From an uncultured Pseudomonadota bacterium (GTDB lineage: Bacteria; CALINM01): a stretch of 64,000 bases of DNA. The position numbers and the translations under genes are program-made. The stretch lies in NCBI GenBank assembly GCA_964540515.1, contig CAZIMS010000001.1, positions 155,218-219,217 of the forward strand, written 5' to 3'. Shown here in pieces: positions 6,563 to 26,513 of the stretch. Position 1 is the stretch's first letter; the number at the start of each line of letters is the position of its first letter. The notes under the pieces are model-generated. The model was given only the letters and a program-made list of their open reading frames with translations, searched no databases and was not told the origin of the DNA.

Positions 6563-7735
6563 TTAGGCACCAAAGGCATCTAAACCAGTTATATACCTTC
6601 CTATTATTAACTCATGTATATCATGTGTTCCTTCATAAGTGTAGACTGATTCTATGTTTAACATGTGCCTAATGGGTACATACTCATCGCTAATACCATT
6701 GGCACCGTGGATTTCCCTTGAAATTCTTGCACAATCTCTAGCAACCTTCACATTATTCATCTTAGCCATAGAAACCATGGCAAAGTTATAGGAACCTTTA
6801 TCTTTCTCTCTACCAACCTGTAGTGCAAGAAGCTCTCCTTTTACAATTTCTGTAAGCATACCAACAAGCTTATGCTGTACAAGCTGAAAACTACCAATGG
6901 GCTTATTAAACTGGATCCTTTCTTTTGAATAATTAAGCGCCGCATCATAGCAGGCCTTTGCAGCACCAATGGCCCCCCAAGATATACCGTATCTTGCCTC
7001 AGTAAGACAGCTTAAAGGAGATTTTAGGCCTCCTGCCAAGGGTAGAATATTATGCGCTGGTATCCTACAATCATTGAATATAAGCTCAGAGGTTACAGAG
7101 GCCCTTAAAGAAAACTTCCCATGCATCTCAGGTGCTTCAAACCCTGCTGTTCCTTTCTCTACTATAAAGCCTCTAATTGTTCCATCTTCTGTCTTTGCCC
7201 ATACAATCGCTAAATCAGCAATCGTTCCGTTTGTAATCCACATCTTTGCTCCGTTTAAAATATAACTATTACCATCTTTTATCGCCTTTGTTTTCATACT
7301 ACCAGGGTCCGATCCTGCATCAGGCTCTGTGAGCCCAAAGCAGCCTATAAGCTCACCCTTTGCCATTTTTGGCAGATATTTATTTTTTTGCTCTTCCGAG
7401 CCGTATTTCCAGATTGGAAACATACAGAGACTACCCTGGACAGAACAAAAACTTCTTATAGCACTATCACCTCTTTCCAACTCTTCCATAGCAAGGCCAT
7501 ACTCTACATTTGTGCCACCAGGACATCCATATCCTTCTAAATGCATACCCAAAAGACCCATATCACCAAAAGCAGATACAAGCTCTTTTGGGAAGGTGCA
7601 GTTTCTGTGATGTTCTGCTATTATAGGAATTATCTCTTCCTCAACAAATTTTCTTACTGTCTCTCTTAACATTTTTTCTTCTTTAGTCAAGAGATTGTCA
7701 AAATTCACAAAATCAACGCCTTTGTATTTTGCCAT
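6563..7735 (-). CDS. acyl-CoA dehydrogenase, glutaryl-CoA dehydrogenase-like
   Basis: 390 aa. Acyl-CoA dehydrogenase fold with the N-terminal helical, middle beta and C-terminal helical domains (YEGTHDIHELIIGR C-terminal motif). Size and context, downstream of a benzoyl-CoA lower pathway, fit GcdH. Confidence 0.7.
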   Translation of the reverse strand: MAKYKGVDFVNFDNLLTKEEKMLRETVRKFVEEEIIPIIAEHHRNCTFPKELVSAFGDMGLLGMHLEGYGCPGGTNVEYGLAMEELERGDSAIRSFCSVQGSLCMFPIWKYGSEEQKNKYLPKMAKGELIGCFGLTEPDAGSDPGSMKTKAIKDGNSYILNGAKMWITNGTIADLAIVWAKTEDGTIRGFIVEKGTAGFEAPEMHGKFSLRASVTSELIFNDCRIPAHNILPLAGGLKSPLSCLTEARYGISWGAIGAAKACYDAALNYSKERIQFNKPIGSFQLVQHKLVGMLTEIVKGELLALQVGREKDKGSYNFAMVSMAKMNNVKVARDCARISREIHGANGISDEYVPIRHMLNIESVYTYEGTHDIHELIIGRYITGLDAFGA

Positions 7736-7780
7736 AGGCTCTCCTCCCTTTATTAGGCTGAAATACCTTTTTTCTTATAA

Positions 7781-8494
7781 TTAGCCACCTAAATATGCCT
7801 TTTTTATCTTTTCATCATGAAGAAGATCTGAAGACTTCCCCCAATCTACAATCTCACCAACTTCTAAAACAAAACTGTAATGAGAAAGCTTTAAAGCAGC
7901 CCTCGCGTTTTGTTCTACCATGATAATACTCATTCCTTCCTCATTTAGATATTTTATTACTTTAAAAATCTCTCTAACAACCAAAGGTGCTAATCCCATA
8001 GAGGGTTCATCAAGTAAGAGTAAAGAAGGATCAGTCATAAGCGCCCTTCCTATAGCAAGCATCTGTTGTTGACCACCACTCATAGTGCCAGATATCTGCT
8101 TTTTTCTCTCCTTTAGAATAGGAAAAAGCTCATAAACTCTGTCTAATTTTTTATTAAGCTCCGATTTAGTAATCTTACTATAGTAGTTATAACTTCCTAA
8201 AAGGAGATTATCTTTAACTGTAAGATGTGTAAATAGCATCCTTCCTTCTGGTACAAGGCTAATACCAATCTTTACAATATCCTGAGTGCTTAATTTATCT
8301 ATCCTCTTGTTAAGAAAATAGATCTCTCCAGATTTGATAGGGACAAGATTCATAATGGCTTTGAGCAAAGTTGATTTCCCTGCTCCGTTTGCCCCTATGA
8401 TACTAACTATATGTTTCTCTTTAAGGTTTATATTTAAGTCTTTTACTGCGTGAATACCTCCGTAAAAGACATTAATATTTCTTACATCAAGCAT
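7781..8494 (-). CDS. livF: ABC transporter ATP-binding protein, LivF type
   Basis: Walker A GANGAGKST. ABC signature MSGGQQQMLAIGRAL. Walker B LLLDEPS. Confidence 0.85.
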   Translation of the reverse strand: MLDVRNINVFYGGIHAVKDLNINLKEKHIVSIIGANGAGKSTLLKAIMNLVPIKSGEIYFLNKRIDKLSTQDIVKIGISLVPEGRMLFTHLTVKDNLLLGSYNYYSKITKSELNKKLDRVYELFPILKERKKQISGTMSGGQQQMLAIGRALMTDPSLLLLDEPSMGLAPLVVREIFKVIKYLNEEGMSIIMVEQNARAALKLSHYSFVLEVGEIVDWGKSSDLLHDEKIKKAYLGG

Positions 8495-9267
8495 TAAAAA
8501 AGGTCCTCCTCCTCACCAAGATAGGCATCAATGACACTCTTATTACTCTTAATTTCAGTGGGTGTTCCTTCTGCCAGTTTCTCACCAAAATTTAAAACCA
8601 CTATATTATCTGATATATCCATTACAAGTGCCATATCATGTTCTACAAGTAGAACTGTAAGATTTTTTTCATCTCTCAACCTTTTAATAAAACCTGAAAG
8701 CTCTTTTGTCTCGGCATCATTAAGACCAGATGCAGGCTCATCAAACATAATAAGCCTTGGTTCCGTTGCTAATGCCCTTGCGATCTCTAAGATTCTTTGG
8801 GAGCCTATAGGAAGCTCACTGGCAAGATAATCCTTTTTATCGTACAAACCAACATATTCCAATATTTCTTCACTTGTTTTTCTTATATCCTTTTCTTCTT
8901 TAATCATAAAGGGAAGTCTTAGACCGCAGCTTAAAAAGCCTGATTTCGTCCTTACATACCTACCTACCATAACATTCTCAAGAACAGTCATGTGCCCATA
9001 TAGCTCCACATTCTGAAAGGTCCTTGAGATACCAAGCCTTGCAATCTTAAGTGAACCAAAATTGGTGATATCTTTTTGATTAAATTCAACCTTGCCTCTA
9101 TCTGGTTTATAGACACCGCTAACAACATTAAATAGTGTTGTTTTGCCAGCACCGTTGGGACCAATTACAGCCTTTATTTCTTGATTTTCCACATTAAAGC
9201 TTACATCCATCAGCGCAGTTATACCACCAAAGGTCTTCCATAGCCCTTCTATTTTAAGCATTTGCAA
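8494..9267 (-). CDS. livG: ABC transporter ATP-binding protein, LivG type
   Basis: Walker A GPNGAGKTT. LPIGSQRILEIARAL signature. C-terminal BCA_ABC_TP_C-like tail. Confidence 0.85.
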   Translation of the reverse strand: MQMLKIEGLWKTFGGITALMDVSFNVENQEIKAVIGPNGAGKTTLFNVVSGVYKPDRGKVEFNQKDITNFGSLKIARLGISRTFQNVELYGHMTVLENVMVGRYVRTKSGFLSCGLRLPFMIKEEKDIRKTSEEILEYVGLYDKKDYLASELPIGSQRILEIARALATEPRLIMFDEPASGLNDAETKELSGFIKRLRDEKNLTVLLVEHDMALVMDISDNIVVLNFGEKLAEGTPTEIKSNKSVIDAYLGEEEDLF

Positions 9268-10192
9268 TCCCTTTCTTTTTCAATTTCAGAATCAAGGTTG
9301 GTACGATACCCTTCCTAATGAAAAGTAAAGATAGTGTTAATATCAAACCATAAATTAAAACATCTAACTCTTCAAACTTTCTCAAAGCTTCAGGGAGTAT
9401 AGTAATGATAATAGCTCCTACGACAGCTCCAAAAAGATTTGATGCCCCACCAATAACTACCATTGTAAGTATTAATACGGAGTGGAATAATGAAAAAGTT
9501 GAAGGACTGATAAAAGTAATATAGTGGGCATAAAAACTCCCAGCGATTGATGCATAAATGGCACTTAATACAAAAATTTTTATTTTTAATGCCGATACAT
9601 CAATCCCCATAGCACTGCTACCTATCTCAGTGTCGTGAATAGCCCTCATTGCTCGACCAATTCTTGAATTGATTATGTTATAAGAAAAAATTATAAGTAC
9701 AAAAACAATAAACCAGATTAAATAAAAATGACCTATCTGACCTGTTAATTTATAGCCCATAAAGGAGACTTTAGGAATGTCACCAAAGCCAGAAGGACCT
9801 CCAGGTCCTAACTCATTAAGAATGATATAAATAATCTCACCAAAACCTAAAGTAGCTACCGCAAGGTAATGTCCTTTTAGTTTTAAAGCTGGAATGGCAA
9901 GCAAAACTGCCGCAAAAGCTGCAACCAGAGCTGCCAAAAAAGCTGAAAAAACGATAGGCATACCAAATTTCATAGCAATTATTGCAGAAACATAGGCACC
10001 AATACCATAAAAACCTGCCTGTCCTAAGGACACCTGACCTGCATAGCCCATTAATAGAGATAGTCCCATGGCAAGTAGTGCGTTAATACCAGCAAAAATT
10101 GCGATAGAAAGTGTATAGTTATCCCTTACGAATGCTGGGAAAATTATAATCAATGTAATAAATATAAGGTAGTTTATATGTCTTCTCATCAA
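9254..10192 (-). CDS. livM: ABC transporter permease, LivM type
   Basis: 312 aa polytopic membrane protein of the HAAT-family permease type. Overlaps its neighbours by 4-14 nt (translational coupling). Confidence 0.75.
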   Translation of the reverse strand: MMRRHINYLIFITLIIIFPAFVRDNYTLSIAIFAGINALLAMGLSLLMGYAGQVSLGQAGFYGIGAYVSAIIAMKFGMPIVFSAFLAALVAAFAAVLLAIPALKLKGHYLAVATLGFGEIIYIILNELGPGGPSGFGDIPKVSFMGYKLTGQIGHFYLIWFIVFVLIIFSYNIINSRIGRAMRAIHDTEIGSSAMGIDVSALKIKIFVLSAIYASIAGSFYAHYITFISPSTFSLFHSVLILTMVVIGGASNLFGAVVGAIIITILPEALRKFEELDVLIYGLILTLSLLFIRKGIVPTLILKLKKKGIANA

Positions 10193-11076
10193 AACTTCCT
10201 TACTGATAAGGTTGACTTACTACCAAAAATCCCTGCAGGTTTAAAGAATAATATGCCAAGAAGTATTAAAAGTGCTACAGCATCTTTAAAACCAGAATGA
10301 ATATACCCTGCAGTTAGAGATTCAAGAATACCTATTATAAAACCACCTACAACTGCTCCAATACCATTTCCAAGTCCGCCCATAATGGCAGCACAAAAGC
10401 CTTTCACTGCTAAGGCCGGACCTTTGTCATACTCCATAAGAGATATAGGTGTTATCGCAATGCCACCTATGGCACCTAAAATGGCACTCAGCACAAAAGA
10501 AAACATAATCATCCTACTTACATTTATCCCCACAAGCTTTGCAGCTGTTGGATTTACTGCACAGGCGCTCATTGCCTTCCCAATCATAGTTTTATTAAAA
10601 AATAAAAATATAAGGGCAATACAAGAAAGAGTAATACCCAAAACCCATAAAACCTGTTGTTGTATAACAGCTCCATACAACACAATTGGCTCCCCTTCAG
10701 TAAAAGGTGGATAATTATAAGGGTCCTTCCCAAATTTAAACATTAACAGTCCTCTAAAGACTATAGAAACAGCTACTGTAATCATTATCATAAGTAACAA
10801 ATCTGCGTTTTTAAGTGGCTTAATTGTTAATCTTTCCATAACTAAACCGATAAGCCCTACGATAAGCAAAGTCAGAATTAATGATAAAACAAAGGGTATC
10901 TGGAGGGATTGAGAGAAAAACCACATAATGAGGCCACCCATTACTACAAACTCGCCCTGGGCTAAATTAATAATTGAAGTGGCGTTATAAATTATGTTAA
11001 ATCCTAAACCTACAAGGGCATATATGGCACCAACAGTAATACCCGAAAGAAGAAATTGTAAAAGCATGGTAAGCAT
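10189..11076 (-). CDS. livH: ABC transporter permease, LivH type
   Basis: 295 aa. HAAT-family permease with N-terminal LLQFLLSGITVGAIYALVGLGF. Confidence 0.75.
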   Translation of the reverse strand: MLTMLLQFLLSGITVGAIYALVGLGFNIIYNATSIINLAQGEFVVMGGLIMWFFSQSLQIPFVLSLILTLLIVGLIGLVMERLTIKPLKNADLLLMIMITVAVSIVFRGLLMFKFGKDPYNYPPFTEGEPIVLYGAVIQQQVLWVLGITLSCIALIFLFFNKTMIGKAMSACAVNPTAAKLVGINVSRMIMFSFVLSAILGAIGGIAITPISLMEYDKGPALAVKGFCAAIMGGLGNGIGAVVGGFIIGILESLTAGYIHSGFKDAVALLILLGILFFKPAGIFGSKSTLSVRKF

Positions 11077-11131
11077 AAGTACCTCTTGATTATAATATTT
11101 TAAAGGGGCTGTATATACAGCCCCTTTAAAA

Positions 11132-12322
11132 CTAATCTTTTAAAATCTCCCAATCTGCATTTTTAACAACAACCATTTCAAAGGCAGTCATATCTAAACC
11201 ACAATGATCTTTTTCTGACATATTAAAGATTCCACCTGTACCTGGCCAGTTCTTAATATTTTTCTCAATATAATCTCTAATCTTTGCTTTATCTGGTCCT
11301 ACCTTTTTAAGGGCTTCAACTACCATCATAACAGCATCATAAGCATGCCCGCCGAAAGTCCCCGGCTCTGATTTAAAACGGGCCTTGTAGTCTTCTTCAT
11401 ACTTTTTAAGCAAAGCCTTCTGTGGATGTTTATCAGGCAGTTTATCCCAAACAACAAGTCTGCCAAGTGGAGCTATTACGCCTTCCGCAGCTTTACCAGC
11501 AAGCTCAATATTTTTCTTACTTCCCCAACCATGGCTTTGATACAAAGGTATCCCCAATTTTAAATCATGCCAGTTTTTTGTTACCACTACCTGACCTGGA
11601 CCTACTGACCAGTTAATTACTGCTTGGGCACCTGAAGCCTTAATCTTTGTAAGCTGTGTTGTCATATCACTATCTTTTGGGCCATATCTCTCATCGGCAA
11701 CTACCTCAATACCCCATTTTGGAGCTTCATCAAGCAAAGCCTTTCTGCCTGCATCTCCAAAGCCCGTAGAGATTGTGATTATGCCAACTTTTTTAATGCC
11801 CTTTTTCTTCATATAGTTATAGATTGCTTGAACTGCGCTCAAGTCATGTTGAGGAGTTTTAAATATCCAATACCTTTCTTCTATTGGATTTGTTATACCA
11901 TACCCCGCAGCACAGGATATAAGAGGAGTTTTGGCATTATTCATAATGGGAACTAGTGCCATAGACTCGCCTGTTGTTGATGGTCCTACAATAGCTAAAA
12001 CTTCATCTTTTTCTAATAGCTTTTTTGCTGCTAAAACAGCATCGGCTTCAACACTTTTTGAGTCTTCAATAATAATCTCCAACTTGTGTCCATTTATACC
12101 ACCTGCTGCATTGATTTGGTCCATTAACATTACTGCTGTATTCTTCTCAGGCTCACCTAAAAAGGAAGCAGCACCAGTAACAGCAAAGATAGCTCCAATC
12201 TTGTAGGGATCTTTAGCAATGCTTACTTTCGCTGTAAAAAAGAAAATTACTACTAAAATTAAAAGTTTTGCTAAAATACTACTTTTTCCCTTCATATTTC
12301 CCTCCTTTTTGTTTAATAACAA
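11132..12322 (-). CDS. Liv-type periplasmic substrate-binding protein; could bind amino acids or aromatic acids
   Basis: 396 aa with a signal peptide (ILAKLLILVVIFFFTAKVSIA). Periplasmic-binding-protein type I fold (GAIFAVTGAASFLGEP...). The true start may be the internal MKGKSS. Confidence 0.75.
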   Translation of the reverse strand: MLLNKKEGNMKGKSSILAKLLILVVIFFFTAKVSIAKDPYKIGAIFAVTGAASFLGEPEKNTAVMLMDQINAAGGINGHKLEIIIEDSKSVEADAVLAAKKLLEKDEVLAIVGPSTTGESMALVPIMNNAKTPLISCAAGYGITNPIEERYWIFKTPQHDLSAVQAIYNYMKKKGIKKVGIITISTGFGDAGRKALLDEAPKWGIEVVADERYGPKDSDMTTQLTKIKASGAQAVINWSVGPGQVVVTKNWHDLKLGIPLYQSHGWGSKKNIELAGKAAEGVIAPLGRLVVWDKLPDKHPQKALLKKYEEDYKARFKSEPGTFGGHAYDAVMMVVEALKKVGPDKAKIRDYIEKNIKNWPGTGGIFNMSEKDHCGLDMTAFEMVVVKNADWEILKD

Positions 12323-12354: not shown

Positions 12355-12942
12355 TTATTTGGCTTCCTTAAAAAGATCTAAACCTAACTGAAATGCCTTT
12401 TTGTTTATCTCAACAGCCTTGCCTTTAACGTTTTTCTCAATTGTTTTTAAAACAGCGTTTTCTTCTAATGGTAGAAACTTTAAAGATGCTCCCAACAAAA
12501 CTACATTAAGAGCTCTCTTGTCTCCAGCTTTCACCGCCAGTTCTGTGCCATTAAAGGGATAAACCTTCCCAGCATTTTTCTTTATAATTTCATCAATATC
12601 CTCTGGATACTTTTCAGCTCCAATGGATACGGTAATACTACTAACTTTATAGGTATTATATATAACTATCCCATTTTCTTTGAGATAATGAATATATCTT
12701 GCTGTTTCTAAAGGCTCAAAACCTATGAGCAAATCAGCCTCACCTTCGCTAACTATGGGGGAGTATACCTTCTCACCAACTCTAACATGACTGATAACGC
12801 TTCCACCTCTCTGGGCCATACCATGAACCTCGCTCTGCTTAACATCAAAACCTTGATCTAACGCTGTTTCCGCAATAATTTTGCTTGTCAGTAGTACCCC
12901 TTGACCGCCTACACCAGCTATTATTATGTTTAAAACATTCAT
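12355..12942 (-). CDS. iorB: indolepyruvate:ferredoxin oxidoreductase beta subunit
   Basis: 195 aa. MNVLNIIIAGVGGQGVLLTSKII is the POR gamma-domain (pyruvate/ketoisovalerate oxidoreductase catalytic domain). Sits next to iorA. Confidence 0.8.
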   Translation of the reverse strand: MNVLNIIIAGVGGQGVLLTSKIIAETALDQGFDVKQSEVHGMAQRGGSVISHVRVGEKVYSPIVSEGEADLLIGFEPLETARYIHYLKENGIVIYNTYKVSSITVSIGAEKYPEDIDEIIKKNAGKVYPFNGTELAVKAGDKRALNVVLLGASLKFLPLEENAVLKTIEKNVKGKAVEINKKAFQLGLDLFKEAK

Positions 12943-14699
12943 TATTTACCCCCTTCAATTGCTGAAAATTTACACATCTGTTGACAAACGGTACAACCAT
13001 TACAAAGAAGCGGATCTATTTGAGTATACTTAGCGCCAGCTTTTTCAATAAAGCTTAGTGCTATACAGCCTACTTTTAAACACATCTTACAGGCTGTACA
13101 TTTCTCTTTATTTACACTAAGTGGTTTTTTAGAAACCTTGTATCTCAAAACACAGGGATCATTTGATATCAACACACTAGGGCCTTCTTTTTCCATCTCC
13201 TCCTTAAAGATCTTTTCCAACTCCTTCAAATTATATGTATCTATCTCAATTACCCTCTCAACACCTATGGCTTTACAGAGCTTTTCAATATCAAGCTTAA
13301 CTGTTGGTTCACCAGAGGCTGTTCTTCCAGTACCTGGATGCTCTTGCCCGCCTGTCATACCAGTTGTATCATTGTTCATAATAACAACTATTGCATCCCC
13401 TTGGTTATAAACCATGTCTATAAGACCAGTTATGCCAGAATGGATAAAGGTGGAATCACCAATAACAGCAACAGGTTTTTCTTTTATGTTTTGCATCTTT
13501 AGACCCACAGCCATCCCATGGGCACCAGAAACACTTGCACCCATACAGATGCAACTATGCATAGCTGTGTATGGGGGAAGGGCTCCAAGGGTATAACAAC
13601 CTATATCACCAGAAACAAAGGTTTTAAGTTTTGAAAGGACCGTGAAGAGCCCTCTATGGGAGCAACCCGGACAAAAGGTAGGAGGTCTTTTTGTAAGATT
13701 TGTTAGCGGTTCCTTTGATTTTGTTTTTTCACCAGAAATTACTTTGTAAACTAAAGTCTTTGTATATTCTCCACAAAGGGGAAACTTATTTTTTCCTATA
13801 TGAACTTTCACACCCATAGCCTTGATTGAATCCTCAAAGAAAGGGTCTAACTGTTCAACAACAACTAATTTTTTTACACTTTTAGCAAACTCTTTAATCT
13901 TTTTTTCTGGCAGTGGCCATGTCATACCTAATTTTAAAATAGATGCCTCTGGAAATGCTTCCTTCGCATATTGATATGAGATACCGCTTGTTATAATGCC
14001 TAAGGAAGATGCGCCCTTTTCCCAAATGTTTAGTTCCGTTTTTTCTGCAAAATCTTTTAGTTTCAGCAACCTTTCTTCAATAATAACATGCCTTTTTTGT
14101 GCGTTAACAGGAAGCATTACATATTTTAAAAAATCTCTTTGAAGTCCTTTGTCTTCTACTGTTTTTTCCTTTTCTAACTCAACAACCCCTTTGCAATGGG
14201 AAATTCTTGTAGTTGTTCTTAGTATAACAGGTGTATCAAACATCTCGCTTATTTCAAAACCAATCCTAACAAAATCTTTTGCCTCTTGAGAATCCGATGG
14301 TTCAAGACAAGGGATTTTTGCAAATCTTGCGTAATGACGGGTATCTTGCTCATTTTGAGAGCTATACATTCCAGGATCATCGGCAACCATTAGTATTAAT
14401 CCACCATTGACCCCTGTGTAGCTTACTGTCATTAAAGAATCGGCAGCTACGTTAACGCCAACATGTTTCATACATGCCATAGAGCGAACACCCGCAATAG
14501 ACCCACCAATAGCAACTTCTAAGGCAACCTTTTCATTAGGTGCCCACTCAGCATGGATCCCTTTACTCCTATACTCAGCAGCAAGTGTCTCTGTCACTTC
14601 GGTAGAGGGAGTACCAGGATAGGATGAAACAACCTTCCCTCCAGCCTCATAAAAACCTCTTGCTATTGCCTCATTTCCTGAAAGTATTGCCTTCATCAA
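12942..14699 (-). CDS. iorA: indolepyruvate:ferredoxin oxidoreductase alpha subunit (TPP plus two 4Fe-4S clusters)
   Basis: 585 aa. TPP-binding GDSTFIHSG region. C-terminal twin ferredoxin motifs CTACKMCLKVGC...CNGCTVCQQMCKFSA. Confidence 0.85.
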   Translation of the reverse strand: MMKAILSGNEAIARGFYEAGGKVVSSYPGTPSTEVTETLAAEYRSKGIHAEWAPNEKVALEVAIGGSIAGVRSMACMKHVGVNVAADSLMTVSYTGVNGGLILMVADDPGMYSSQNEQDTRHYARFAKIPCLEPSDSQEAKDFVRIGFEISEMFDTPVILRTTTRISHCKGVVELEKEKTVEDKGLQRDFLKYVMLPVNAQKRHVIIEERLLKLKDFAEKTELNIWEKGASSLGIITSGISYQYAKEAFPEASILKLGMTWPLPEKKIKEFAKSVKKLVVVEQLDPFFEDSIKAMGVKVHIGKNKFPLCGEYTKTLVYKVISGEKTKSKEPLTNLTKRPPTFCPGCSHRGLFTVLSKLKTFVSGDIGCYTLGALPPYTAMHSCICMGASVSGAHGMAVGLKMQNIKEKPVAVIGDSTFIHSGITGLIDMVYNQGDAIVVIMNNDTTGMTGGQEHPGTGRTASGEPTVKLDIEKLCKAIGVERVIEIDTYNLKELEKIFKEEMEKEGPSVLISNDPCVLRYKVSKKPLSVNKEKCTACKMCLKVGCIALSFIEKAGAKYTQIDPLLCNGCTVCQQMCKFSAIEGGK

Positions 14700-19461: not shown

Positions 19462-20673
19462 CTATTTCCTCCCCATTATAATCATATGGCTGAAATCTTT
19501 AATTCTATCTATCACCCTATTTCTATCATAGCCACTTTGGTCGTTATGATCAGACTCTATTATCAAGGAAGGAACTCCTAAGCTATCTCTTATAATTTTT
19601 GAAAGTTCAGGCTGAACAAGGGAGTAAGGCTTGCAGCTTTTATCGGAATGAAAAATAATGCCATCAACCTTATATTGCTTTATCAAGTCCTGCATAAGCT
19701 GCCATCTTCTTTCTATTTGTACATTTAGAAATCCTGAACCTAGATAGTATCCAAAGCTTCTTATAGGATTTTCTTCATCTACAACACCCATAAAACGTGG
19801 TCCCCAAGCCTGAGTATAGGTATCAATAACAAAAATTATTCCGTAATGCTCAAGCTCATCAAATAGCCTTAAATCAAACCAGATTGGGAGATTGTCCCAA
19901 AGAAGTCTTGCCTTCTCCTCTGCTACAGGAAAATCTTTATTTAGAATTCTCTCTTTAAGTTCATCCCTCAAAAACCTTAAATGTTCTATATATTGTTCTG
20001 TGCCTCGAAGGGAAACCATTGGAAACATATGGGTAAATATATCTCCAGCGTTCATTGGACAGGGCACATGTGCTCTTAGCTCTAATATCTCTGCCCACAA
20101 CCTTTTCCCTTCGTTGGATATCCTTACAATCTCTGAAAATTTATCTCTATTGAACTTATTGCCTGTTTTTCCCTCGACAAAATCAATCATTCTCTTAAGC
20201 TCTTCTTCCATATAGTCAAGGTGGTGTCCTTCAGACTCCATTTTTACTTGAGGGGCATCTATTACAAAGGTTGGCACACTATAAAGCTTTTCTACAGCCC
20301 TCCACCATGTCATAATCATAATACAGGAGTTTGTCGTTTCTACCTGAATTGTAGGGAGAGGCAACTCTCCTACTGGACCTTTTTTAGCTAAGAGTGACCC
20401 AATATTTACCCTTGCATAAGAGCAAATATCGTTGCTAAAGCCATCTTGTTCTGCTATTTGTGATAGCTCGGGGGTTATTTTCTGAGCACCACAGAGGGCT
20501 CCATAATTTTCTGGATAAAAAGGGAAAACATCCATTGCATAAAAGATCTCACAGGGCACCCCCACATTAAGCCAAGCTGTTGGTTTTCCATCCTTTGACC
20601 AGGCAAAATAGTCATCGTAATAATTTTTTATAAGTTTCTTTAAACTTTCTGTAGCCTTTAACCTTTTGCCCAT
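19462..20673 (-). CDS. 2-hydroxyacyl-CoA dehydratase / benzoyl-CoA reductase BcrB(HgdA)-family subunit
   Basis: 403 aa. N-terminal ...AWLNVGVPCEIFYAMDVFPFYPENYGA and conserved Cys pattern of the HgdAB/BcrBC [4Fe-4S] family. Confidence 0.65.
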   Translation of the reverse strand: MGKRLKATESLKKLIKNYYDDYFAWSKDGKPTAWLNVGVPCEIFYAMDVFPFYPENYGALCGAQKITPELSQIAEQDGFSNDICSYARVNIGSLLAKKGPVGELPLPTIQVETTNSCIMIMTWWRAVEKLYSVPTFVIDAPQVKMESEGHHLDYMEEELKRMIDFVEGKTGNKFNRDKFSEIVRISNEGKRLWAEILELRAHVPCPMNAGDIFTHMFPMVSLRGTEQYIEHLRFLRDELKERILNKDFPVAEEKARLLWDNLPIWFDLRLFDELEHYGIIFVIDTYTQAWGPRFMGVVDEENPIRSFGYYLGSGFLNVQIERRWQLMQDLIKQYKVDGIIFHSDKSCKPYSLVQPELSKIIRDSLGVPSLIIESDHNDQSGYDRNRVIDRIKDFSHMIIMGRK

Positions 20674-20713: not shown

Positions 20714-21808
20714 CTAAACACCAATCCCAAAGACCTGTTCATAAAAAGCTTCCAGTCTTGTTTTCATCTGCTGATAATTAGAGAGCCTATGGTCACTTTC
20801 AATATAAAGGTGGGGTATCTTTTCTGCCTCAAGTCTCCTTTTAATAAAAGCATATTCTACCCCTTCGGAGTCACAGAATCTTGTTCTAAAAAATACTACT
20901 CCCTTGGCGTTGCTAGTTCTCACTTCCTTTATAAGCTCTTCTATTCTTCGCTCTGAAGGGTCCTTTACAGAGCAGGGTGGTTTCATTATGTATCTTATAG
21001 CTATATTTTCTATAAGCTCATAAATATTATCTCCCTTTTCCGATACTAGGTCCTTTGCATACCTTGTCCCACTTGCTATATCATCACTGACAACGTAAAA
21101 GCCAATCTCATCTAATAACTTAAAAAAGCTTAAACTATCAAGCTCAGTGGCAGAAAGGATAATATTCCCTTCATTATATCTGCCCTTACTATTAATATTC
21201 AAAGAAATCAAACTTTCGCAATCTTTAATAAAATCATCTATATCTTTCCATGTGGAGGAAAAAACAGTTTTGTAAAAATCTTCTGAGGTGCCCCTCAATT
21301 TTCCTTCTTTTCTGAAATTGTAGAGGTTTTGAAGGGCCTCCCTCTTTTTGTTAACCTTTATTATTGCCCCTTTCAATCCTTCATAGTTATAATCAACCTG
21401 TAGCTGTTCTTTTAATCTATTGAATACCTCCCTAAACTCTATAGCAAGATAATACTTTGCAGTATCTCTTACGACCTGTGAGTATCTTATATACTCGGTA
21501 AGCGGACTTAATTTTTCTGACTTCCATACCTCATAGACACCTCTTAGAGAATCGCAATATCTTGTAAATACGGCGGCTGATAAAAAACTTAGCTTCCCCT
21601 TTAGTGCCTGTTCAAGGATATTTTTGGCATAGGGGCAACAAAAACCTTGCAAAAACTCATTTGCCCTGATGGGCTCTTCTTCATCACTCATTACTCTAAC
21701 AGGATGTAAGCCCATAGCGTAGATAAACTCTTCTGGGAAATAGGTATCAAAATAACCAACTATCTTTTTGTTTGTCGCTAAATTATTCAAATATTCATAA
21801 TATGTCAT
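20714..21808 (-). CDS. 2-hydroxyacyl-CoA dehydratase / benzoyl-CoA reductase BcrC(HgdB)-family subunit
   Basis: 364 aa. N-terminal KKIVGYFDTYFPEEFIYAMGLHPVRVM and CDSLRG / CPYAKN Cys motifs of the HgdB/BcrC family. Confidence 0.65.
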   Translation of the reverse strand: MTYYEYLNNLATNKKIVGYFDTYFPEEFIYAMGLHPVRVMSDEEEPIRANEFLQGFCCPYAKNILEQALKGKLSFLSAAVFTRYCDSLRGVYEVWKSEKLSPLTEYIRYSQVVRDTAKYYLAIEFREVFNRLKEQLQVDYNYEGLKGAIIKVNKKREALQNLYNFRKEGKLRGTSEDFYKTVFSSTWKDIDDFIKDCESLISLNINSKGRYNEGNIILSATELDSLSFFKLLDEIGFYVVSDDIASGTRYAKDLVSEKGDNIYELIENIAIRYIMKPPCSVKDPSERRIEELIKEVRTSNAKGVVFFRTRFCDSEGVEYAFIKRRLEAEKIPHLYIESDHRLSNYQQMKTRLEAFYEQVFGIGV

Positions 21809-21841: not shown

Positions 21842-22327
21842 CTATTTCTCTACTACAGGCTCAAAGGCAAAATAGACCCTTGGGATCTCAACTGTCTCTC
21901 TACCAAAGTCTGCAGGAAAGGGTTCCACTTCAAAAACTTTAAGTCTAACTTTATCACCTGCCTGTAAATTACCAGGCTTACAATTTATGACTCTAACTAT
22001 AAAAGTAAAGGCCTTTGGCAACTCAACCATAGCAAGGACAAGTGGTGTTTCAAAACCAATGGGAACACCAATCTCCTCAACAACAGCCTCTACAACTGTC
22101 CCTTCAGTCGGTAAATCTACCCATTCTAAATCCTCCGATAAACATTCAGGACATATAACCCTAGGTGGATATGATAGCTTCCCACATTGTTTGCATTTGG
22201 TTGTTGTAAATCTATTCTGTCTCAAGTTATCAAAGAAAGGTTGAATCCTTGTAAACTCTTTACCCTGAGGTGGGTATAGATCCATTGTAACAGCATATTT
22301 TCCTTCTAACCTTGATATACCTCTCAT
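21842..22327 (-). CDS. DUF35 protein: Zn-ribbon plus OB-fold partner of SCP-x thiolases (BbsA-like)
   Basis: 161 aa. CKQCGKLSYPPRVICPECLS rubredoxin-like zinc ribbon followed by an OB-fold. Overlaps the thiolase start by 4 nt. Confidence 0.75.
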   Translation of the reverse strand: MRGISRLEGKYAVTMDLYPPQGKEFTRIQPFFDNLRQNRFTTTKCKQCGKLSYPPRVICPECLSEDLEWVDLPTEGTVVEAVVEEIGVPIGFETPLVLAMVELPKAFTFIVRVINCKPGNLQAGDKVRLKVFEVEPFPADFGRETVEIPRVYFAFEPVVEK

Positions 22328-23493
22328 ATCTCCCTCCCATAAACAAGCACTGTTTGCGCTGCTATCATACCGCTAAAGTTTTGAGTTAAACCAAACTGTG
22401 CGCCTTCTACATTTCTCATAGCCCTTCCTTGCAGCTGTTTCATAATCTCTATGGCTTGTCTAATACCTGTACCGCCAAAGGGATGACCACAGGAAAGGAG
22501 CCCACCATCTGTATTAACCGCAACCTTACCACCAAAATCAGATTGGCCTGTTTCAACAAAGGGGCCGCCTTCTCCCTTCTTACAAAATCCTAACTCTTCA
22601 TATTCAATGATCTCTGAGATAGTAAAACAATCATGTGTTTGCGCTACCTTTATATGGTCTGCTGTTATCCCTGCCTCTTTATATGCCTTTTGTGAGGCAA
22701 TTCTTAAGGCCTCCCAGCTTGTCCAGTCGACCTTATTTGCTGAAGCGTTATATTGTGTACATTGACCTGTCCCCATAATGTAGACAAGTGGCCTATCAGT
22801 TAGCTGCTTCGCTTTCTCTTCCGAGGCTAAAATCACAGCAGCTGTGCCATCAGTCAAAGGACAGCAATCAAATAGTTTCAATGGCTTTGCTACAACCTTT
22901 GCGCACATAGCGGTTTTTAAATCAATACATTCCCTAAACTGCCCTTTTGCATTATTAAGACCGTTTCGTCTATTTTTTACAGAGACCATCGCCATTTGCT
23001 CTTCTGTGGTGCCATATTTTTTCATATGAAGTTTTGCCACCATTGCTAATGCCGCTGGTGGTAATCCTAATCCATGGGCTCCATCAAAATCATGGTCAAC
23101 TGAACACAACTGACTATAAAAGGCTTCCCATTTTTGTGGGGTATTTAACTTCTCTCCCCCAGCAACCATAACTACATCAGCAACCCCCGCCTTGATTAAA
23201 CCATAGGCCATTATAATTGCGCTTGAGCCACTTGCACAAAGTAGCTCAACTCTTGCACAGACACTCCTTGTCTTTATACCTAAAGACTCAGCAACAAGTG
23301 GCGCTAAATGTGTCTGGGTAGCTAATCTTTCAGTGTAGGCTGATGCGACGATAAGCCCATCTACATCTTTATTTTTAACCATTGGGTTGTCTTCAAAACA
23401 GGCTTTACCTGCTTCTTGAAACATCTCTCTTAATGTTGCCTGTCTTACCCCCCACTGAGACATACCTCCTGCAATTATACATACTTTTCTCAT
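22324..23493 (-). CDS. SCP-x/nsLTP-type thiolase (BbsB-like)
   Basis: 389 aa. Thiolase fold with active-site Cys context CASGSSAI, C-terminal GHPFGGTG and no biosynthetic-thiolase signature. Confidence 0.8.
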   Translation of the reverse strand: MRKVCIIAGGMSQWGVRQATLREMFQEAGKACFEDNPMVKNKDVDGLIVASAYTERLATQTHLAPLVAESLGIKTRSVCARVELLCASGSSAIIMAYGLIKAGVADVVMVAGGEKLNTPQKWEAFYSQLCSVDHDFDGAHGLGLPPAALAMVAKLHMKKYGTTEEQMAMVSVKNRRNGLNNAKGQFRECIDLKTAMCAKVVAKPLKLFDCCPLTDGTAAVILASEEKAKQLTDRPLVYIMGTGQCTQYNASANKVDWTSWEALRIASQKAYKEAGITADHIKVAQTHDCFTISEIIEYEELGFCKKGEGGPFVETGQSDFGGKVAVNTDGGLLSCGHPFGGTGIRQAIEIMKQLQGRAMRNVEGAQFGLTQNFSGMIAAQTVLVYGREI

Positions 23494-23536
23494 TTATCCC
23501 CTCCTAACAAATTTCTCTCAGACAAGCTTTTTTCTA

Positions 23537-24484
23537 TCATTTATTTTTCCTCATAGCATTTCTTAATTCTATAGACTTTACAAGCTTTAGCAATGCTAAA
23601 TTGTAAGGCGTTTCAACTCCATATTGTTTACCAAGCTCAACAATGGCACCATTTAAATTATCAATTTCAGTTTTTCTTCCAGCCTCTAAATCCTGCAATG
23701 TTGATACTTTATTGTCCTTAACACCACTTAATGCTTTAAGGGCAAACTCACCAGGGTTATTAAATACATCAAAGGTAAATCCCTTAGCTCTAGCCACCTT
23801 TGCCATCTCTTCAGCTACTGTTTTAATAAAATCTTTAGCATCTTCACAGGCCAATGCTTCATTGCCAGTCATGCCTGTTACAGCTAAAAAGGCATTGCAG
23901 GCAACATTAGCAATAAGTTTTCTCCAAATAGGTATCTCTATGGGTTCTTTGCTAACATCTGTCTTGAAACCATATTTTGTAAGAAAATCTGCAAGTGCGT
24001 TCACATTGGGATCTTCTTTTGCATCAATTCTACCTACATATATATATCCCATACCTCCTACATATCTAATCTCATTTGGACCAAGTAGTTGTGCACTATG
24101 GGCAGTTACCCCACCAATTGTCCTATCGGCACCTACATGTTTAGCTATAATTTCAAGATTACCCAAGCCATTTTGGACAGATAGCAGGTATGTATCTGCT
24201 CCAATCATAGGCTTACTCATCAAAACAGCCGATTCGGTATGAAACCCCTTAACAGATATCTGAATAAAATCACAGATACCTACCTCTTCTGGATTACTCG
24301 TTATCTTTAACTTAACGTTATGTCTTGACCCATCAGGTAATATTATATTTAAACCTTCCTTTTGAATTAGTTCTACTCTTGTTTTATCTACTTCTACAAG
24401 CCATATATTGTCAGCTCCGTTTAATGTCATTACTGCACCAATAGTACCACCTAATGCTCCTGCCCCTACTATTGCATATTTCAT
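23537..24484 (-). CDS. ketopantoate reductase-family (PanE/ApbA) NAD(P)H 2-oxoacid reductase
   Basis: 315 aa. MKYAIVGAGALGGTIGA Rossmann motif plus ApbA C-terminal domain. Confidence 0.7.
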   Translation of the reverse strand: MKYAIVGAGALGGTIGAVMTLNGADNIWLVEVDKTRVELIQKEGLNIILPDGSRHNVKLKITSNPEEVGICDFIQISVKGFHTESAVLMSKPMIGADTYLLSVQNGLGNLEIIAKHVGADRTIGGVTAHSAQLLGPNEIRYVGGMGYIYVGRIDAKEDPNVNALADFLTKYGFKTDVSKEPIEIPIWRKLIANVACNAFLAVTGMTGNEALACEDAKDFIKTVAEEMAKVARAKGFTFDVFNNPGEFALKALSGVKDNKVSTLQDLEAGRKTEIDNLNGAIVELGKQYGVETPYNLALLKLVKSIELRNAMRKNK

Positions 24485-25308
24485 ACTTTTTTCCCTCCCT
24501 TTAATTTAAGTAGTCTCTTAGCATTCTCCCCCAAAATTTTCTTTACACAATCCTCACTTAAATTAAGCTTCTTAATCATATCAATGTTTTTCTTTACATT
24601 GCCGGTGCTTGGAAAATCACTACCAAATATCACCTTATCAGGAATCTTTTCTAATTCGGGAAAATATTTCAGAAGATTCTCAGGTGGAAGTCCAGAAATT
24701 TCAAGATAAATATTTTTATGAAGCTTAGACAAAAAGAAAGCTCTATCGTAAAAAAAACCTCTTCCACCATGAACAAGTAGTATCTTAAGTTCTGGAAAAT
24801 CAACAGCCACATCATCAAGAAAGATAGGGTCACCATATTTAATTCTTGCCCCTTTAAAAACAGAGCTTCCTGTATGCAACATTACGGGGATCTCTAGCTC
24901 CTGTGCAGTCTCGTAAAGGGGATACAAGAAACTTTCGTTAGGGTAAAAGTACTGGTAAGTAGGATAAAGCTTTAGAACTTTAAAACCCATTTTATAAAGT
25001 CTTCTTACTTCTTCCCTCAGATCTCTCACCATATAGGGGTTTATATTCCCACCTGGTATTAACCTTTTATGCTTTCTACAAATATCAATTACCTCTTCAT
25101 TATCAATAATACCTGTTGTTATAGGGCTTATCTCGGCAAGCCCAACAGCATAATCTACTCCCTGAGACTCTAAATACTCATCAATATCACCATTTATGAT
25201 ATCGAGAAAACTCATACCTTCCTTTTCCCATACCTTTTCGCAGAACTGATATATATCTCTATAAAGCTCATTTCTCCTTGCCAAGTGAAAATGAAAGTCT
25301 ATAACCAT
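24481..25308 (-). CDS. amidohydrolase_2 family TIM-barrel metal hydrolase/decarboxylase
   Basis: 275 aa. N-terminal IDFHFHL (the His-x-His metal ligands of amidohydrolase-2) and later LHTGSS / VHGG motifs. Confidence 0.6.
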   Translation of the reverse strand: MVIDFHFHLARRNELYRDIYQFCEKVWEKEGMSFLDIINGDIDEYLESQGVDYAVGLAEISPITTGIIDNEEVIDICRKHKRLIPGGNINPYMVRDLREEVRRLYKMGFKVLKLYPTYQYFYPNESFLYPLYETAQELEIPVMLHTGSSVFKGARIKYGDPIFLDDVAVDFPELKILLVHGGRGFFYDRAFFLSKLHKNIYLEISGLPPENLLKYFPELEKIPDKVIFGSDFPSTGNVKKNIDMIKKLNLSEDCVKKILGENAKRLLKLKGGKKV

Positions 25309-25385
25309 TATCTATCCTGTTTTAAAAATTTAATCTACCTTTGTCAGAGACCTTATTACAAAATCTACCCTGTCTCCAACAATCA

Positions 25386-26513
25386 TTATTTAGGTTTCGG
25401 TATTATCTCTTCCCACATTGCATCATCAGCTAAAGCACCTTTAGCAATCATCTGTCTAAACTTTATAAAATCAACAAGATCTTTCCCAGTGGTCTTTCTC
25501 GTAGAAAAGGCAGTAAAGCCAGGGAAGGCTTCGTAGTTCATGTTCAATCCCAGCCAGTATCTGCTTGGTGTTTTGAAGATATCCCAGAAATATCTCTTTT
25601 TGCTTCTAATACTATCGATGGATTTCATCAAACACTGGGGGAATAGATTTACAAACCGCCAAATAACCTCATCAACAGCTTTATCTAGAAGCTCAAAATC
25701 AGTGGTACACTCATTTAGCAATGCCTTAGCCTTATCTAATTCTTCACCTCTTTTATTCTCACCATAAACAATTTCTCCGTCTTTAACAAATTCTTCTGTT
25801 ATAACAAGTGGGTTTCTAACCCATTTTCCATCCTTTTTTAACACTGGAGTCACCTTTGAAATTAGTCCCTTAAATTTCATCTTATAGGCACTCCAAACTT
25901 CACAGGAAACACAGTTCCACATAGCATCTTCCATGGAAAGATACCAGGGGAGAAAATCTGTTGCGCCCCCATCTGGAGCAGAACCATGTTTTGGACCTGC
26001 CTGACCAAAGACAGCTAAATCTGAGGAGATGCTTATATCACAAGCCATTCCTATCTCCTGGCCACCAGCTACCCTCATACCATTCACCCTGCATATAACA
26101 GGCTTTTTACAATTAAGAATGCCATCTACCATTGCATTGAATAGATCCATGTACTCACCATACTCATTTGGACGCTTTGAGTAATAGAAGGCATACTCAA
26201 CTGTATTTCCACCAGTACAGAAGGCCTTATCCCCAGTACCAGTAAAAACTACAGCTACAACTGACCTGTCAGATGAGGCCTTTTGAAAACCTGCAATAAC
26301 ACCTTTTACCATCTCAGTAGTATAAGAATTATACTGGGCAGGATTATTTAATATTATCCATGCAACGTAAAGGTCTTCAATAACTTTGCCTTCGGGATCC
26401 CTCAGTGGCCTTTTTTCATAAATCGTACAAGGCGCCTCTTTACCAAAATATTCATCACCAAATAAAGCATGATTTTTTAATTCATTGTCTCTGGGAAGCC
26501 AGTCTAAACTCAT
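25386..26513 (-). CDS. oah: 6-oxocyclohex-1-ene-1-carbonyl-CoA hydrolase (ring-cleaving crotonase, BamA/Oah)
   Basis: 375 aa, a crotonase-superfamily protein of BamA size. Contains NPAQYNSYTTEMV and AGGQEIGMACD. These are the peptides encoded by the widely used bamA SP9 and ASP1 functional-marker primers. Confidence 0.75.
   Translation of the reverse strand: MSLDWLPRDNELKNHALFGDEYFGKEAPCTIYEKRPLRDPEGKVIEDLYVAWIILNNPAQYNSYTTEMVKGVIAGFQKASSDRSVVAVVFTGTGDKAFCTGGNTVEYAFYYSKRPNEYGEYMDLFNAMVDGILNCKKPVICRVNGMRVAGGQEIGMACDISISSDLAVFGQAGPKHGSAPDGGATDFLPWYLSMEDAMWNCVSCEVWSAYKMKFKGLISKVTPVLKKDGKWVRNPLVITEEFVKDGEIVYGENKRGEELDKAKALLNECTTDFELLDKAVDEVIWRFVNLFPQCLMKSIDSIRSKKRYFWDIFKTPSRYWLGLNMNYEAFPGFTAFSTRKTTGKDLVDFIKFRQMIAKGALADDAMWEEIIPKPK

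Follow-up and report, generated by a model that had tools for sequence, protein, structure and literature searches.

Organization of the gene array

We analyzed a 64 kb window (the whole stretch of DNA under study; overall guanine-plus-cytosine [GC] content 35%) of contig CAZIMS010000001.1 from an uncultured Pseudomonadota bacterium, which carries on its minus strand an array of 19 consecutive open reading frames (ORFs) running from a gene for the ring hydrolase BamA/Oah to one for an acyl-coenzyme A (acyl-CoA) dehydrogenase (Table 1). The array serves anaerobic aromatic-acid catabolism, not complete benzoyl-CoA ring opening. In our best reading of its sequence, held tentatively and at slightly less than an even chance, the encoded enzymes would convert arylpyruvate via aryllactate, aryllactyl-CoA, and cinnamoyl-CoA to benzoyl-CoA and acetyl-CoA.

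Neighboring genes of the array are spaced −14 to +77 nt apart, 97% of the interval is coding, GC skew is negative throughout, and a GGAGG-type ribosome-binding site stands immediately 5′ of nearly every gene. The binding-protein gene is the exception: no such site precedes its TTG codon, so its true start probably lies further downstream. An earlier note on this DNA had described the location, strand, and co-direction of the array correctly; its count of 17 genes must be raised to 19, the number that its own list also names, and its spacing range holds at the lower end and falls short at the upper (+76 nt). Families were called with Pfam, with curated NCBIfam models and their equivalog cut-offs, and from the nearest solved structures, and every Pfam family that the earlier note had named was confirmed, including the Liv-type binding protein, two permeases, and two ATPases of the uptake system.

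Table 1 Features of the array, its putative control elements, and a related gene module. Positions refer to the window unless a locus number (L) precedes them; lengths in amino acids (aa) or nucleotides (nt); paired scores are bits versus cut-off
Feature	Position	Strand	Length	Evidence or remark
Gene array	6563-26513	minus		19 consecutive ORFs
BamA/Oah, 6-oxocyclohex-1-ene-1-carbonyl-CoA hydrolase	25386-26513	minus	375 aa	TIGR03200 equivalog
Amidohydrolase_2 metal hydrolase, possibly BamU/ThnN-like	24481-25308	minus	275 aa	PF04909, 111.7 bits
PanE/ApbA-family reductase, proposed arylpyruvate to (R)-aryllactate	23537-24484	minus	315 aa	PF02558 + PF08546; TIGR00745 subfamily 215.7 bits
SCP-x/archaeal-type thiolase	22324-23493	minus	389 aa	Thiolase_N + Thiolase_C_1; PRK06064 374 bits; BbsB 176
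DUF35 thiolase partner (zinc ribbon + OB fold)	21842-22327	minus	161 aa	PF12172 + PF01796; weak BbsA match
HGD-D beta subunit, HadC/HgdB-like	20714-21808	minus	364 aa	PF06050 232.9 bits
HGD-D alpha subunit, HadB/HgdA-like; proposed catalytic subunit, aryllactyl-CoA dehydratase	19462-20673	minus	403 aa	PF06050 238.4 bits
AMP-forming acyl-CoA ligase, FadD/feruloyl-CoA-synthetase type	17886-19460	minus	524 aa	PF00501 + PF13193; PRK06187 460.8 bits
Crotonase, short-chain enoyl-CoA hydratase type	17033-17815	minus	260 aa	ECH_1 209 bits; PRK05809 230 bits
3-Hydroxyacyl-CoA dehydrogenase, Hbd type	16144-17013	minus	289 aa	3HCDH_N + 3HCDH; PRK05808 350.6 bits
PaaK-family arylacetate-CoA ligase	14776-16125	minus	449 aa	TIGR02155 610.9 bits
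IorA, indolepyruvate (arylpyruvate):ferredoxin oxidoreductase alpha	12942-14699	minus	585 aa	TIGR03336 705.9 vs 650.9
IorB, beta subunit	12355-12942	minus	195 aa	TIGR03334 213.4 vs 205.8; NF005325 242.3 vs 230
Peripla_BP_6 solute-binding protein	11132-12322	minus	396 aa (listed)	PF13458
LivH-type ABC permease	10189-11076	minus	295 aa	PF02653
LivM-type ABC permease	9254-10192	minus	312 aa	PF02653
LivG-type ABC ATPase	8494-9267	minus	257 aa	PF00005 + PF12399
LivF-type ABC ATPase	7781-8494	minus	237 aa	PF00005
Acyl-CoA dehydrogenase, generic short/medium-chain type	6563-7735	minus	390 aa	Three ACAD domains
A+T-rich divergent intergenic region, BamA/dnaJ; putative control region	26514-26884	minus	371 nt	18.3% GC
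Sigma-54 type −24/−12 element TGGCATAACCGTTGCT	26682-26667	minus		About 155 nt 5′ of the BamA ATG
Terminal hairpin after last gene	6522-6545	minus	10-bp stem	−19.6 kcal/mol, z −5.5; poor U tail
Intercistronic hairpin, binding-protein gene/first permease gene	11098-11131	minus	15-bp stem, perfect palindrome	−26.3 kcal/mol, z −7.2
Four-gene ATPase module	L021 1211-3383; L022 1321-3485; L031 9212-11376; L023 628-3038			

Reductase, ligase, HgdBA-like pair, and thiolase

Within the array, a PanE-like reductase, an AMP-forming ligase, a pair of HGD-D proteins resembling HgdB and HgdA, and a thiolase with its DUF35 partner form a block to which the earlier note had given no role, and it is this block that is conserved across phyla. 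The reductase is 47-52% identical to the PanE proteins encoded beside ligase and HgdBA genes in Actinomycetes and Campylobacterota/Hippea, so that orthologs occur in three phyla, whereas the HgdBA-adjacent PanE is only 25-30% identical to a second protein, PanE2, which flanks the cluster of the window's closest relatives and presumably has a housekeeping role. To our knowledge, all characterized PanE/ApbA enzymes reduce 2-oxo acids to D-2-hydroxy acids, and the D-configuration is the type of substrate that 2-hydroxyacyl-CoA dehydratases need. Among solved structures, the ligase matched FadD5 (273 bits) and feruloyl-CoA synthetase (258 bits) ahead of benzoate-CoA ligase (153 bits). The thiolase, whose gene overlaps that of DUF35 by 4 nt, shares 65-69% identity with its counterpart in Campylobacterota/Hippea.

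As a single sequence, the alpha subunit of the HgdBA-like pair scored 172 bits with HadB, 114 with BzdO, and 107 with MbdO, and the profile of its clade gave 228, 163, and 142 bits, respectively. Three of its residues that do not vary within the clade, Cys84, Cys117, and Cys347, occupy the positions of the cluster cysteines in HadB and BzdO, and the protein also keeps the Trp and Glu common to all family members. At the positions of the BzdO active-site residues (PMC11971306) His131, Leu302, and Glu381-Gly382, it has Ile, Trp, and Lys-Pro; the corresponding positions in HadB hold a small aliphatic residue, Trp, and Lys-Leu. The beta subunit matched HadC (118 bits) and BzdN (114 bits) and has no equivalents of Cys36 and Cys263 of BzdN, two of the six double-cubane cysteines, carrying Asp21 and Ala245 instead. 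We downgraded these cysteines and His131 as a discriminator between reductases and dehydratases because the 3-methylbenzoyl-CoA reductase MbdN/MbdO also lacks them. The NCBIfam models for HadB (213 bits versus a cut-off of 750) and HadC (149 versus 700) were matched far below threshold, and the class I reductase models were likewise below theirs (BzdN 121/454, BzdO 120/449, BcrC 107/421, BcrB 116/487 bits, score/cut-off). The pair nevertheless shows the marks of a 2-hydroxyacyl-CoA dehydratase, namely two HGD-D proteins, three cysteine ligands in the alpha subunit, and greater closeness to dehydratases than to reductases. We thus lean, with not quite even confidence, toward a predicted 2-hydroxyacyl-CoA dehydratase rather than a reductase.

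Arylpyruvate, arylacetate, and uptake genes

Both subunits of IorAB, as the earlier note had named them, exceeded the equivalog cut-offs. PaaK came close, matching TIGR02155 over its full length below the cut-off of 646.3 bits and a haloarchaeal PaaK model with 574.9 bits against a cut-off of 700. Together with BamA, which also passes, these enzymes bear out the earlier reading of the locus as one of aromatic catabolism. The enzymes named there for two entry routes, PaaK and IorAB, are present, and what that model does not provide is a step from phenylacetyl-CoA to benzoyl-CoA.

The binding protein reached 72.9 bits with the LivJ/K model, far from the cut-off of 477, and its nearest solved structures are aromatic-acid binders of Rhodopseudomonas palustris, including CouP (3SG0, 4DQD, 3UK0, and CouP 4JB0/3TX6), at only 111-148 bits. 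The ligands, we assume, are phenylpyruvate in 4DQD and benzoylformate in 3SG0. Pfam revealed neither electron-transfer flavoprotein (ETF) genes nor a CoA-transferase gene in the cluster.

Genes of the benzoyl-CoA end

BamA/Oah matched TIGR03200 over model positions 1-360 of 360 with 573.7 bits, well above the curated equivalog cut-off of 464.45, in agreement with the earlier call. The adjacent amidohydrolase had no NCBIfam match, and its best solved relative was the uncharacterized BB4693 (53.6 bits); an amidohydrolase of unknown function (BamU/ThnN) occurs in bam and thn clusters (PMC12016498).

The remaining candidates for the lower benzoyl-CoA pathway belong to generic families. The 25 families that the crotonase matched best, with scores down to 121.6 bits, did not include the Dch model TIGR03189 (cut-off 292.5 bits). 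The dehydrogenase is of the 3HCDH/Hbd type, whereas known Had proteins belong to the Zn-alcohol-dehydrogenase family (TIGR03201), a different fold, and tblastn of the window with a relative's true Had (495 bits versus a cut-off of 339) found no Had. The acyl-CoA dehydrogenase scored higher with AcrC (287.6 bits, cut-off 640) and Staphylococcus FadE (265.6 bits) than with the Desulfococcus glutaryl-CoA dehydrogenase (245.9 bits, cut-off 470), and the models do not support a glutaryl-CoA dehydrogenase. The earlier note had proposed to check whether hydratase, dehydrogenase, and hydrolase fall with Dch, Had, and Oah: by the curated models the hydrolase does, and the hydratase and the dehydrogenase fall into generic families. 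Its claim of a complete lower benzoyl-CoA pathway must therefore be withdrawn, as the window holds neither Had nor Dch and its crotonase, 3HCDH protein, and acyl-CoA dehydrogenase are generic. Its statement that the window has no ring-reducing enzyme stands: no homologue of the BcrAD_BadFG ATPase occurs anywhere in the 64 kb, no tungsten subunit of the aldehyde:ferredoxin oxidoreductase (AOR) family, as in the BamB-type class II reductase, is present in the window, and tblastn of the window with the relatives' proteins found no activase, Had, Dch-like gene, AOR, or ferredoxin-like protein.

Conservation of the core across lineages

Conservation was assessed in 30 loci available for neighborhood comparison (numbered with the prefix L), starting from a clade of alpha subunits defined by at least 55% identity, which comprises about 44 protein clusters. 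The clade is discrete, since identity falls sharply to 42% or less for the next proteins; homologues of that third tier (38-42% identity) lie in generic contexts, as HGD-D pairs with one activase or ligase, and added nothing to the comparison. Around the clade, a core of PanE-like reductase, CoA ligase, HgdBA-like pair, crotonase, Hbd, thiolase/DUF35, PaaK, and IorAB recurs in four distant lineages, mostly without BamA, and among the clade neighborhoods BamA, Had, and Dch are confined to the window's own lineage. PaaK adjoins the HgdBA-like pair in three lineages and lies about 7.5 kb away in Actinomycetes. The genes for PanE, ligase, HgdBA, crotonase, and Hbd are arranged, in two lineages, in the order of the reactions that we propose.

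The lineages differ in what accompanies this core. In Campylobacterota/Hippea the order is PanE, ligase, thiolase, DUF35, HgdB, HgdA, crotonase, Hbd, PaaK, IorA, IorB, and an AOR-like gene. This last gene (about 680-780 aa; L016 9731-12064, L019 16516-18696, L025 16522-18549) directly follows IorB, and its match to the aldehyde ferredoxin oxidoreductase model is confined to the N-terminal part. In Actinomycetes, two ATPases, a 93-aa protein, a small protein, and a two-component system are followed by crotonase, PanE, ligase, HgdB, and HgdA, with PaaK, Hbd, and an aminotransferase nearby. In Thermodesulfobacteriota, a sigma-54 promoter precedes HgdB, HgdA, a single HgdC-type activase (TIGR00241, 274 bits; beside the pair in L011 and L013), crotonase, thiolase, Hbd, PaaK, and LivKHMGF, and housekeeping genes bound the whole. 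Judged by its gene content, this operon is complete in itself, encoding a transporter, a ligase, a dehydratase and its activase, a hydratase, a dehydrogenase, and a thiolase; BamA, Had, and Dch are missing from it.

Beside the HgdBA-like pair of the window's relatives and of Actinomycetes stands a further module of four genes (Table 1). Its products are two ATPases, the second of BzdQ type, a Cys-rich protein of 93 aa, and a CxxC protein of about 70-86 aa. It is orthologous between the window's relatives and Actinomycetes, with identities of 42, 57, 43, and 42%, respectively.

The window and its closest relatives

The arrangement of dnaJ next to BamA was found in three independent assemblies, namely the source contig of 383,663 bp and two Logan contigs, and is therefore not an assembly artifact; samples SRR7473445 and SRR8371833 carry it. 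In the relatives L021, L022, and L031, whose proteins are 84-90% identical to those of the window, about 11 additional co-directional genes precede BamA: a second PanE, two BcrAD_BadFG ATPases, a GNAT acetyltransferase, the 93-aa Cys-rich protein, a protein of about 70 aa, a small Fe-S protein, an aldehyde:ferredoxin oxidoreductase, a classical thiolase, an SDR protein, a Dch-like crotonase, and the Had already mentioned. The second ATPase is a true BzdQ (TIGR03192, 436.6 bits versus 380.2; 64% identical to Aromatoleum BzdQ), and no BzdNO genes lie near it. The Dch-like hydratase reached 138.9 bits against the TIGR03189 cut-off of 292.5. We rejected the relatives' AOR as a BamB-type class II reductase, as it matched the Pyrococcus AOR with 371 bits and BamB with 200.

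The window has an ortholog of the PanE that flanks the relatives' supercluster (45236-46183, 60% identical), and it is followed by a P-type cation ATPase (46180-48822) and the trp operon rather than by BcrAD-type ATPase and Had genes. This PanE2 marks a synteny break about 19 kb from BamA. The source contig is not represented in the Had or BzdQ protein clusters of this lineage, which indicates that it carries neither gene and that the window is a shortened, rearranged version of the larger supercluster. The window version can work only if Dch, Had, a reductase, and an activator are encoded elsewhere in the genome.

Control elements and flanking genes

The region upstream of BamA is A+T-rich, as the earlier note had observed, and contains a sigma-54 type element, TGGCATAACCGTTGCT, that is the sole match to TGG[CT]A[CT]-N5-T[TC]GC[AT] in the 64 kb. 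A looser scan with TGGCAC-N5-TTGC and up to 2 mismatches showed no enrichment over the 64 kb (39 matches versus 31 expected), nor did a sigma-70 scan (48 versus 60.6 expected). A sigma-54 type motif also precedes the first cluster gene in the orthologous loci L003, L005, L011, and L013, and L005 and L031 have genes for a kinase and a sigma-54 response regulator upstream of their clusters; a tblastn search of the window with the proteins of the relatives found no such activator or kinase. Sigma-54 two-component control (BamVW) is known in Geobacter. Strictly, the earlier statement that the window has no regulator is wrong, as an Rrf2-family gene lies at 40980-41435, and it is right in that none adjoins the array; the Rrf2 gene is 14 kb from the operon and shows no sign of linkage to it.

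The terminal hairpin of the earlier note is indeed present, and a stronger one stands after the binding-protein gene (Table 1). In L003, L005, L011, and L013, a hairpin of unrelated sequence occupies the equivalent position after the binding-protein gene. Hairpins at one position with unrelated sequences in four distant orthologous operons indicate that the structure is conserved rather than the sequence. Such an element is typical of ABC operons that need surplus binding protein, and it may split the transcript, attenuate it, or direct its processing. In L003 (region 3843-4112), a strong intrinsic terminator lies after Had and before the sigma-54 element of BamA, and the Had side and the BamA side are thus separate transcription units despite their adjacency. 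For the window, the layout, the ribosome-binding sites, the unique and conserved sigma-54 motif, and the hairpins fit a single predicted operon.

On both sides the array is flanked by housekeeping genes of the opposite strand, ilvD-ilvB-ilvN (2615-6506), in which the convergent ilvN ends at 6506 near the terminal hairpin, and dnaJ-comEC (from 26885). The comEC ORF (27924-30185), for which a TTG start is listed, shares 50 nt with the end of dnaJ, and its start was probably set too early. A fused DctM-type TRAP membrane protein (581 aa) and an NMT1_3 (TAXI-type) binding protein are encoded at 33671-36430 on the minus strand, a second uptake system 7 kb from the operon. Further along, the plus strand carries a 958-aa ORF (42350-45226) without a Pfam match at E ≤ 1e-5 and a complete trpE-G-D-C-F-B-A operon (49176-55363). 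Searches of the window for tRNA genes and Rfam families gave no matches.

Proposed pathway

The 19 genes would constitute one sigma-54-dependent operon that joins four modules. In the uptake module, the Liv-type ABC importer, judged by similarity, may bring in an aromatic 2-oxo or 2-hydroxy acid. IorAB, as a member of its family, would interconvert arylpyruvate and arylacetyl-CoA, with the direction of the reaction presumed, and PaaK would activate arylacetate and so tie it to the arylpyruvate node. In the third module, the PanE-like reductase would convert arylpyruvate to (R)-aryllactate, the FadD-type ligase would form aryllactyl-CoA, and the HgdBA-like pair, acting as an iron-sulfur radical dehydratase, would yield cinnamoyl-CoA and water. 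The crotonase would then re-hydrate cinnamoyl-CoA at C3, the Hbd-type dehydrogenase would form benzoylacetyl-CoA, and the thiolase with DUF35 would cleave it to benzoyl-CoA with release of acetyl-CoA. Within the fourth module, BamA/Oah, whose family assignment is firm, and the amidohydrolase would serve ring opening of reduced benzoyl-CoA, a step for which BamA would require a reductase, Dch, and Had that the window does not encode. We take the substrate to be aromatic because IorAB passes and PaaK comes near its cut-off, the binding protein is near aromatic-acid binders, and the ligase resembles feruloyl-CoA synthetase more than benzoate-CoA ligase.

Several points weigh against this pathway. 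No ATP-dependent activator of the HgdC/HadI type was found in the window, so that the predicted dehydratase could not work from the window's genes alone. Both the nearest relatives and Actinomycetes have two ATPase genes linked to the pair, one of which encodes, in the relatives, the true BzdQ, with no BzdNO nearby; this linkage is the architecture of class I reductases, as known dehydratases use one homodimeric activator. The relatives' cluster also has a Dch-like hydratase, Had, and Oah, and no other candidate ring reductase. As the cysteine and histidine markers are missing in MbdNO as well, they set apart only the Bzd type and leave room for a reductase. The identity of the substrate is read from neighboring genes only, the generic crotonase, Hbd, and thiolase would suit 3-hydroxypimeloyl-CoA or crotonyl-CoA just as well, and a phenylacetate route with two AMP-forming activations would be costly.

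Alternative readings

In the main alternative, which we consider unlikely and nonetheless take seriously, the HgdBA-like pair would supply the catalytic subunits of an aryl-CoA ring reductase of a new kind, ATP-driven and class I-like, working with a BzdPQ-like ATPase pair and a small Cys-rich ferredoxin-like protein. The ligase would then make benzoyl-CoA or an analogue, BamA with Dch and Had from elsewhere would open the ring, and Hbd, the thiolases, crotonase, and acyl-CoA dehydrogenase would complete the lower pathway, a model near that of the earlier note with its missing reductase partly present. It would explain why relatives with 84-90% identical proteins hold the first ATPase, BzdQ, the 93-aa protein, the Dch-like hydratase, Had, and Oah alongside the pair and have neither BzdNO nor a BamB-type enzyme, and why the orthologous four-gene module in Actinomycetes again stands beside PanE, ligase, and HgdBA. 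The known class I types are only about 24-26% identical to each other (PMC11971306), so a further divergent type is conceivable, and the loss of His131 and the double-cubane cysteines, shared with MbdO and MbdN, is no obstacle to it. Yet the alpha subunit and its family profile are clearly nearer to HadB than to either reductase type, the ligase falls outside the benzoate-CoA ligase family, and the PanE-type 2-oxo-acid reductase, always adjacent, would be left without a role, as PaaK and IorAB would be left unconnected to benzoyl-CoA. The Thermodesulfobacteriota and Campylobacterota/Hippea clusters, moreover, have no Oah, Had, or Dch nearby, and the first of these is a closed operon whose one activase is of the HgdC type. 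A broader formulation, doubtful in our estimate and still worth entertaining, is that the HgdBA-like clade would represent a new branch of reductase/dehydratase radical enzymes with a BzdPQ-type heterodimeric ATPase and a small Cys-rich protein of its own. It may take the form of a third type of ATP-dependent aryl-CoA ring reductase, or it may be a dehydratase that recruited a reductase-type ATPase module and leads from phenylpyruvate or phenylacetate to benzoyl-CoA without Pad enzymes.

We give little credence to a Stickland-like fermentation as in Clostridium sporogenes, with IorAB as the oxidative branch from arylpyruvate to arylacetyl-CoA, with PanE, ligase, dehydratase, and the acyl-CoA dehydrogenase acting as enoyl-CoA reductase forming a reductive branch to arylpropionate, and with BamA as a passenger or relic. 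The acyl-CoA dehydrogenase does match the clostridial acryloyl-CoA reductase model AcrC best, the dehydratase is HadB-like, and a PanE-type enzyme is a 2-oxo-acid reductase in Lactococcus; the lack of ETF and CoA-transferase genes in the cluster speaks against it, however, as does the fact that AMP-forming ligases conserve no energy in reverse. Crotonase, Hbd, and thiolase are co-conserved beside the dehydratase in all four lineages, which argues for oxidation of the enoyl-CoA, and Thermodesulfobacteriota and Campylobacterota/Hippea are mostly respiring anaerobes, not fermenters. Similarly improbable is a generic fatty-acid or branched-chain 2-oxo-acid operon, for instance from 2-oxoisocaproate through 2-hydroxyisocaproyl-CoA to isobutyryl-CoA and acetyl-CoA, for which the aromatic labels would be overstated. 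In its favor, 2-hydroxyisocaproyl-CoA is the substrate of the solved protein that the dehydratase matches best, the transporter belongs to the Liv family, and the crotonase, Hbd, thiolase, and acyl-CoA dehydrogenase are of generic types. Against this stand the equivalog matches of BamA and IorAB, the near match of PaaK, a binding protein nearest to aromatic-acid binders and far from LivJ/K, and a counterpart in Desulfococcus multivorans induced by phenylacetate and phenylpyruvate (PMC5109826).

Relation to known systems

The nearest described system is this D. multivorans cluster (Dmul_24730-24900), whose enzyme set is close to that of the window, as matched by gene content and not by sequence. 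Proteogenomics showed its proteins to be formed specifically on phenylacetate and phenylpyruvate; they include IorA3B3, a "putative phenylpyruvate reductase" of about 319 aa, the alpha subunit of a "predicted R-phenyllactate dehydratase" with an activator, two AMP ligases, an uptake system, a two-component regulator, a thiolase, a hydratase/dehydrogenase, and Hbd5 (PMC5109826). The organism has neither padB nor padEFGHI, and the authors of that study, who assigned the dehydratase genes only to "phenyllactate to phenylpyruvate", did not commit themselves on the route to benzoyl-CoA (PMC5109826). D. multivorans has a TRAP transporter and a fused hydratase/dehydrogenase where the window has an ABC transporter and separate genes, and BamA and the amidohydrolase, which lie inside the window's array, are not in the same unit there. 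The chemistry from phenylpyruvate through cinnamoyl-CoA to benzoyl-CoA was put forward as a hypothesis in a 2026 paper (PMC13416013).

With the clostridial dehydratase systems HadBC/HadI, FldBC/FldI, and HgdAB/HgdC, the window shares the two-subunit HGD-D pair, the three alpha cysteines, and a HadB-like active site. They differ in using a CoA-transferase where the window has an AMP-forming ligase, and in reducing the dehydratase product, whereas that of the window is proposed to be hydrated and oxidized. The clostridial systems also have an activator gene, whereas the window has none, its nearest relatives and Actinomycetes have a heterodimeric BzdPQ-like pair, and Thermodesulfobacteriota a single HgdC-type gene. 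BamA/Oah is common to the window, the bzd cluster of Aromatoleum, and the bam cluster of Geobacter metallireducens, to which the relatives add Had and BzdQ equivalogs, and bam and thn clusters also contain an amidohydrolase (BamU, ThnN) that we liken to the window's by description (PMC12016498). What the window lacks in comparison with bzd and bam clusters is a reductase, Dch, Had, ETF, and a benzoate-CoA ligase, and its HGD-D pair is neither BzdNO nor BcrBC.

The last three proposed steps are identical to those of cinnamoyl-CoA/3-phenylpropanoid beta-oxidation in Aromatoleum aromaticum EbN1, R. palustris, and D. multivorans, and in the latter Hbd-type and thiolase proteins have been implicated in the conversion of cinnamoyl-CoA to benzoyl-CoA (PMC5109826). 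The known beta-oxidative entry proceeds through an acyl-CoA dehydrogenase on phenylpropionyl-CoA or through direct activation of cinnamate, whereas the window would use alpha-dehydration of aryllactyl-CoA. The importer resembles the CouPSTU type of R. palustris, with a binding protein of the same Peripla_BP_6 family and a like Liv-type layout of permeases and ATPases. Taken together, the locus is a variant of known anaerobic aromatic clusters and not a new category, with its pathway predicted.

Implications

BamA is a widely used marker gene for anaerobic aromatic degraders, and this BamA-positive locus without Had, Dch, or a reductase illustrates that BamA alone can overstate degradative capacity. 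In the relatives, a HadB-like catalytic pair occurs together with a true BzdQ-type ATPase and without BzdNO, a combination that blurs the boundary between dehydratase activators and reductase ATPases. Certain sulfate reducers, among them Desulfococcus multivorans and Desulfobacula toluolica, use phenylalanine, phenylpyruvate, and phenylacetate as growth substrates and have no Pad enzymes, and the step to benzoyl-CoA has been called unclear (PMC5109826). The portable set of reductase, ligase, dehydratase, hydratase, dehydrogenase, and thiolase that occurs with IorAB and PaaK in four phyla offers a hypothesis for this step that can be tested enzyme by enzyme. If true, it would account for the breakdown of phenylalanine and phenylacetate by some strict anaerobes.

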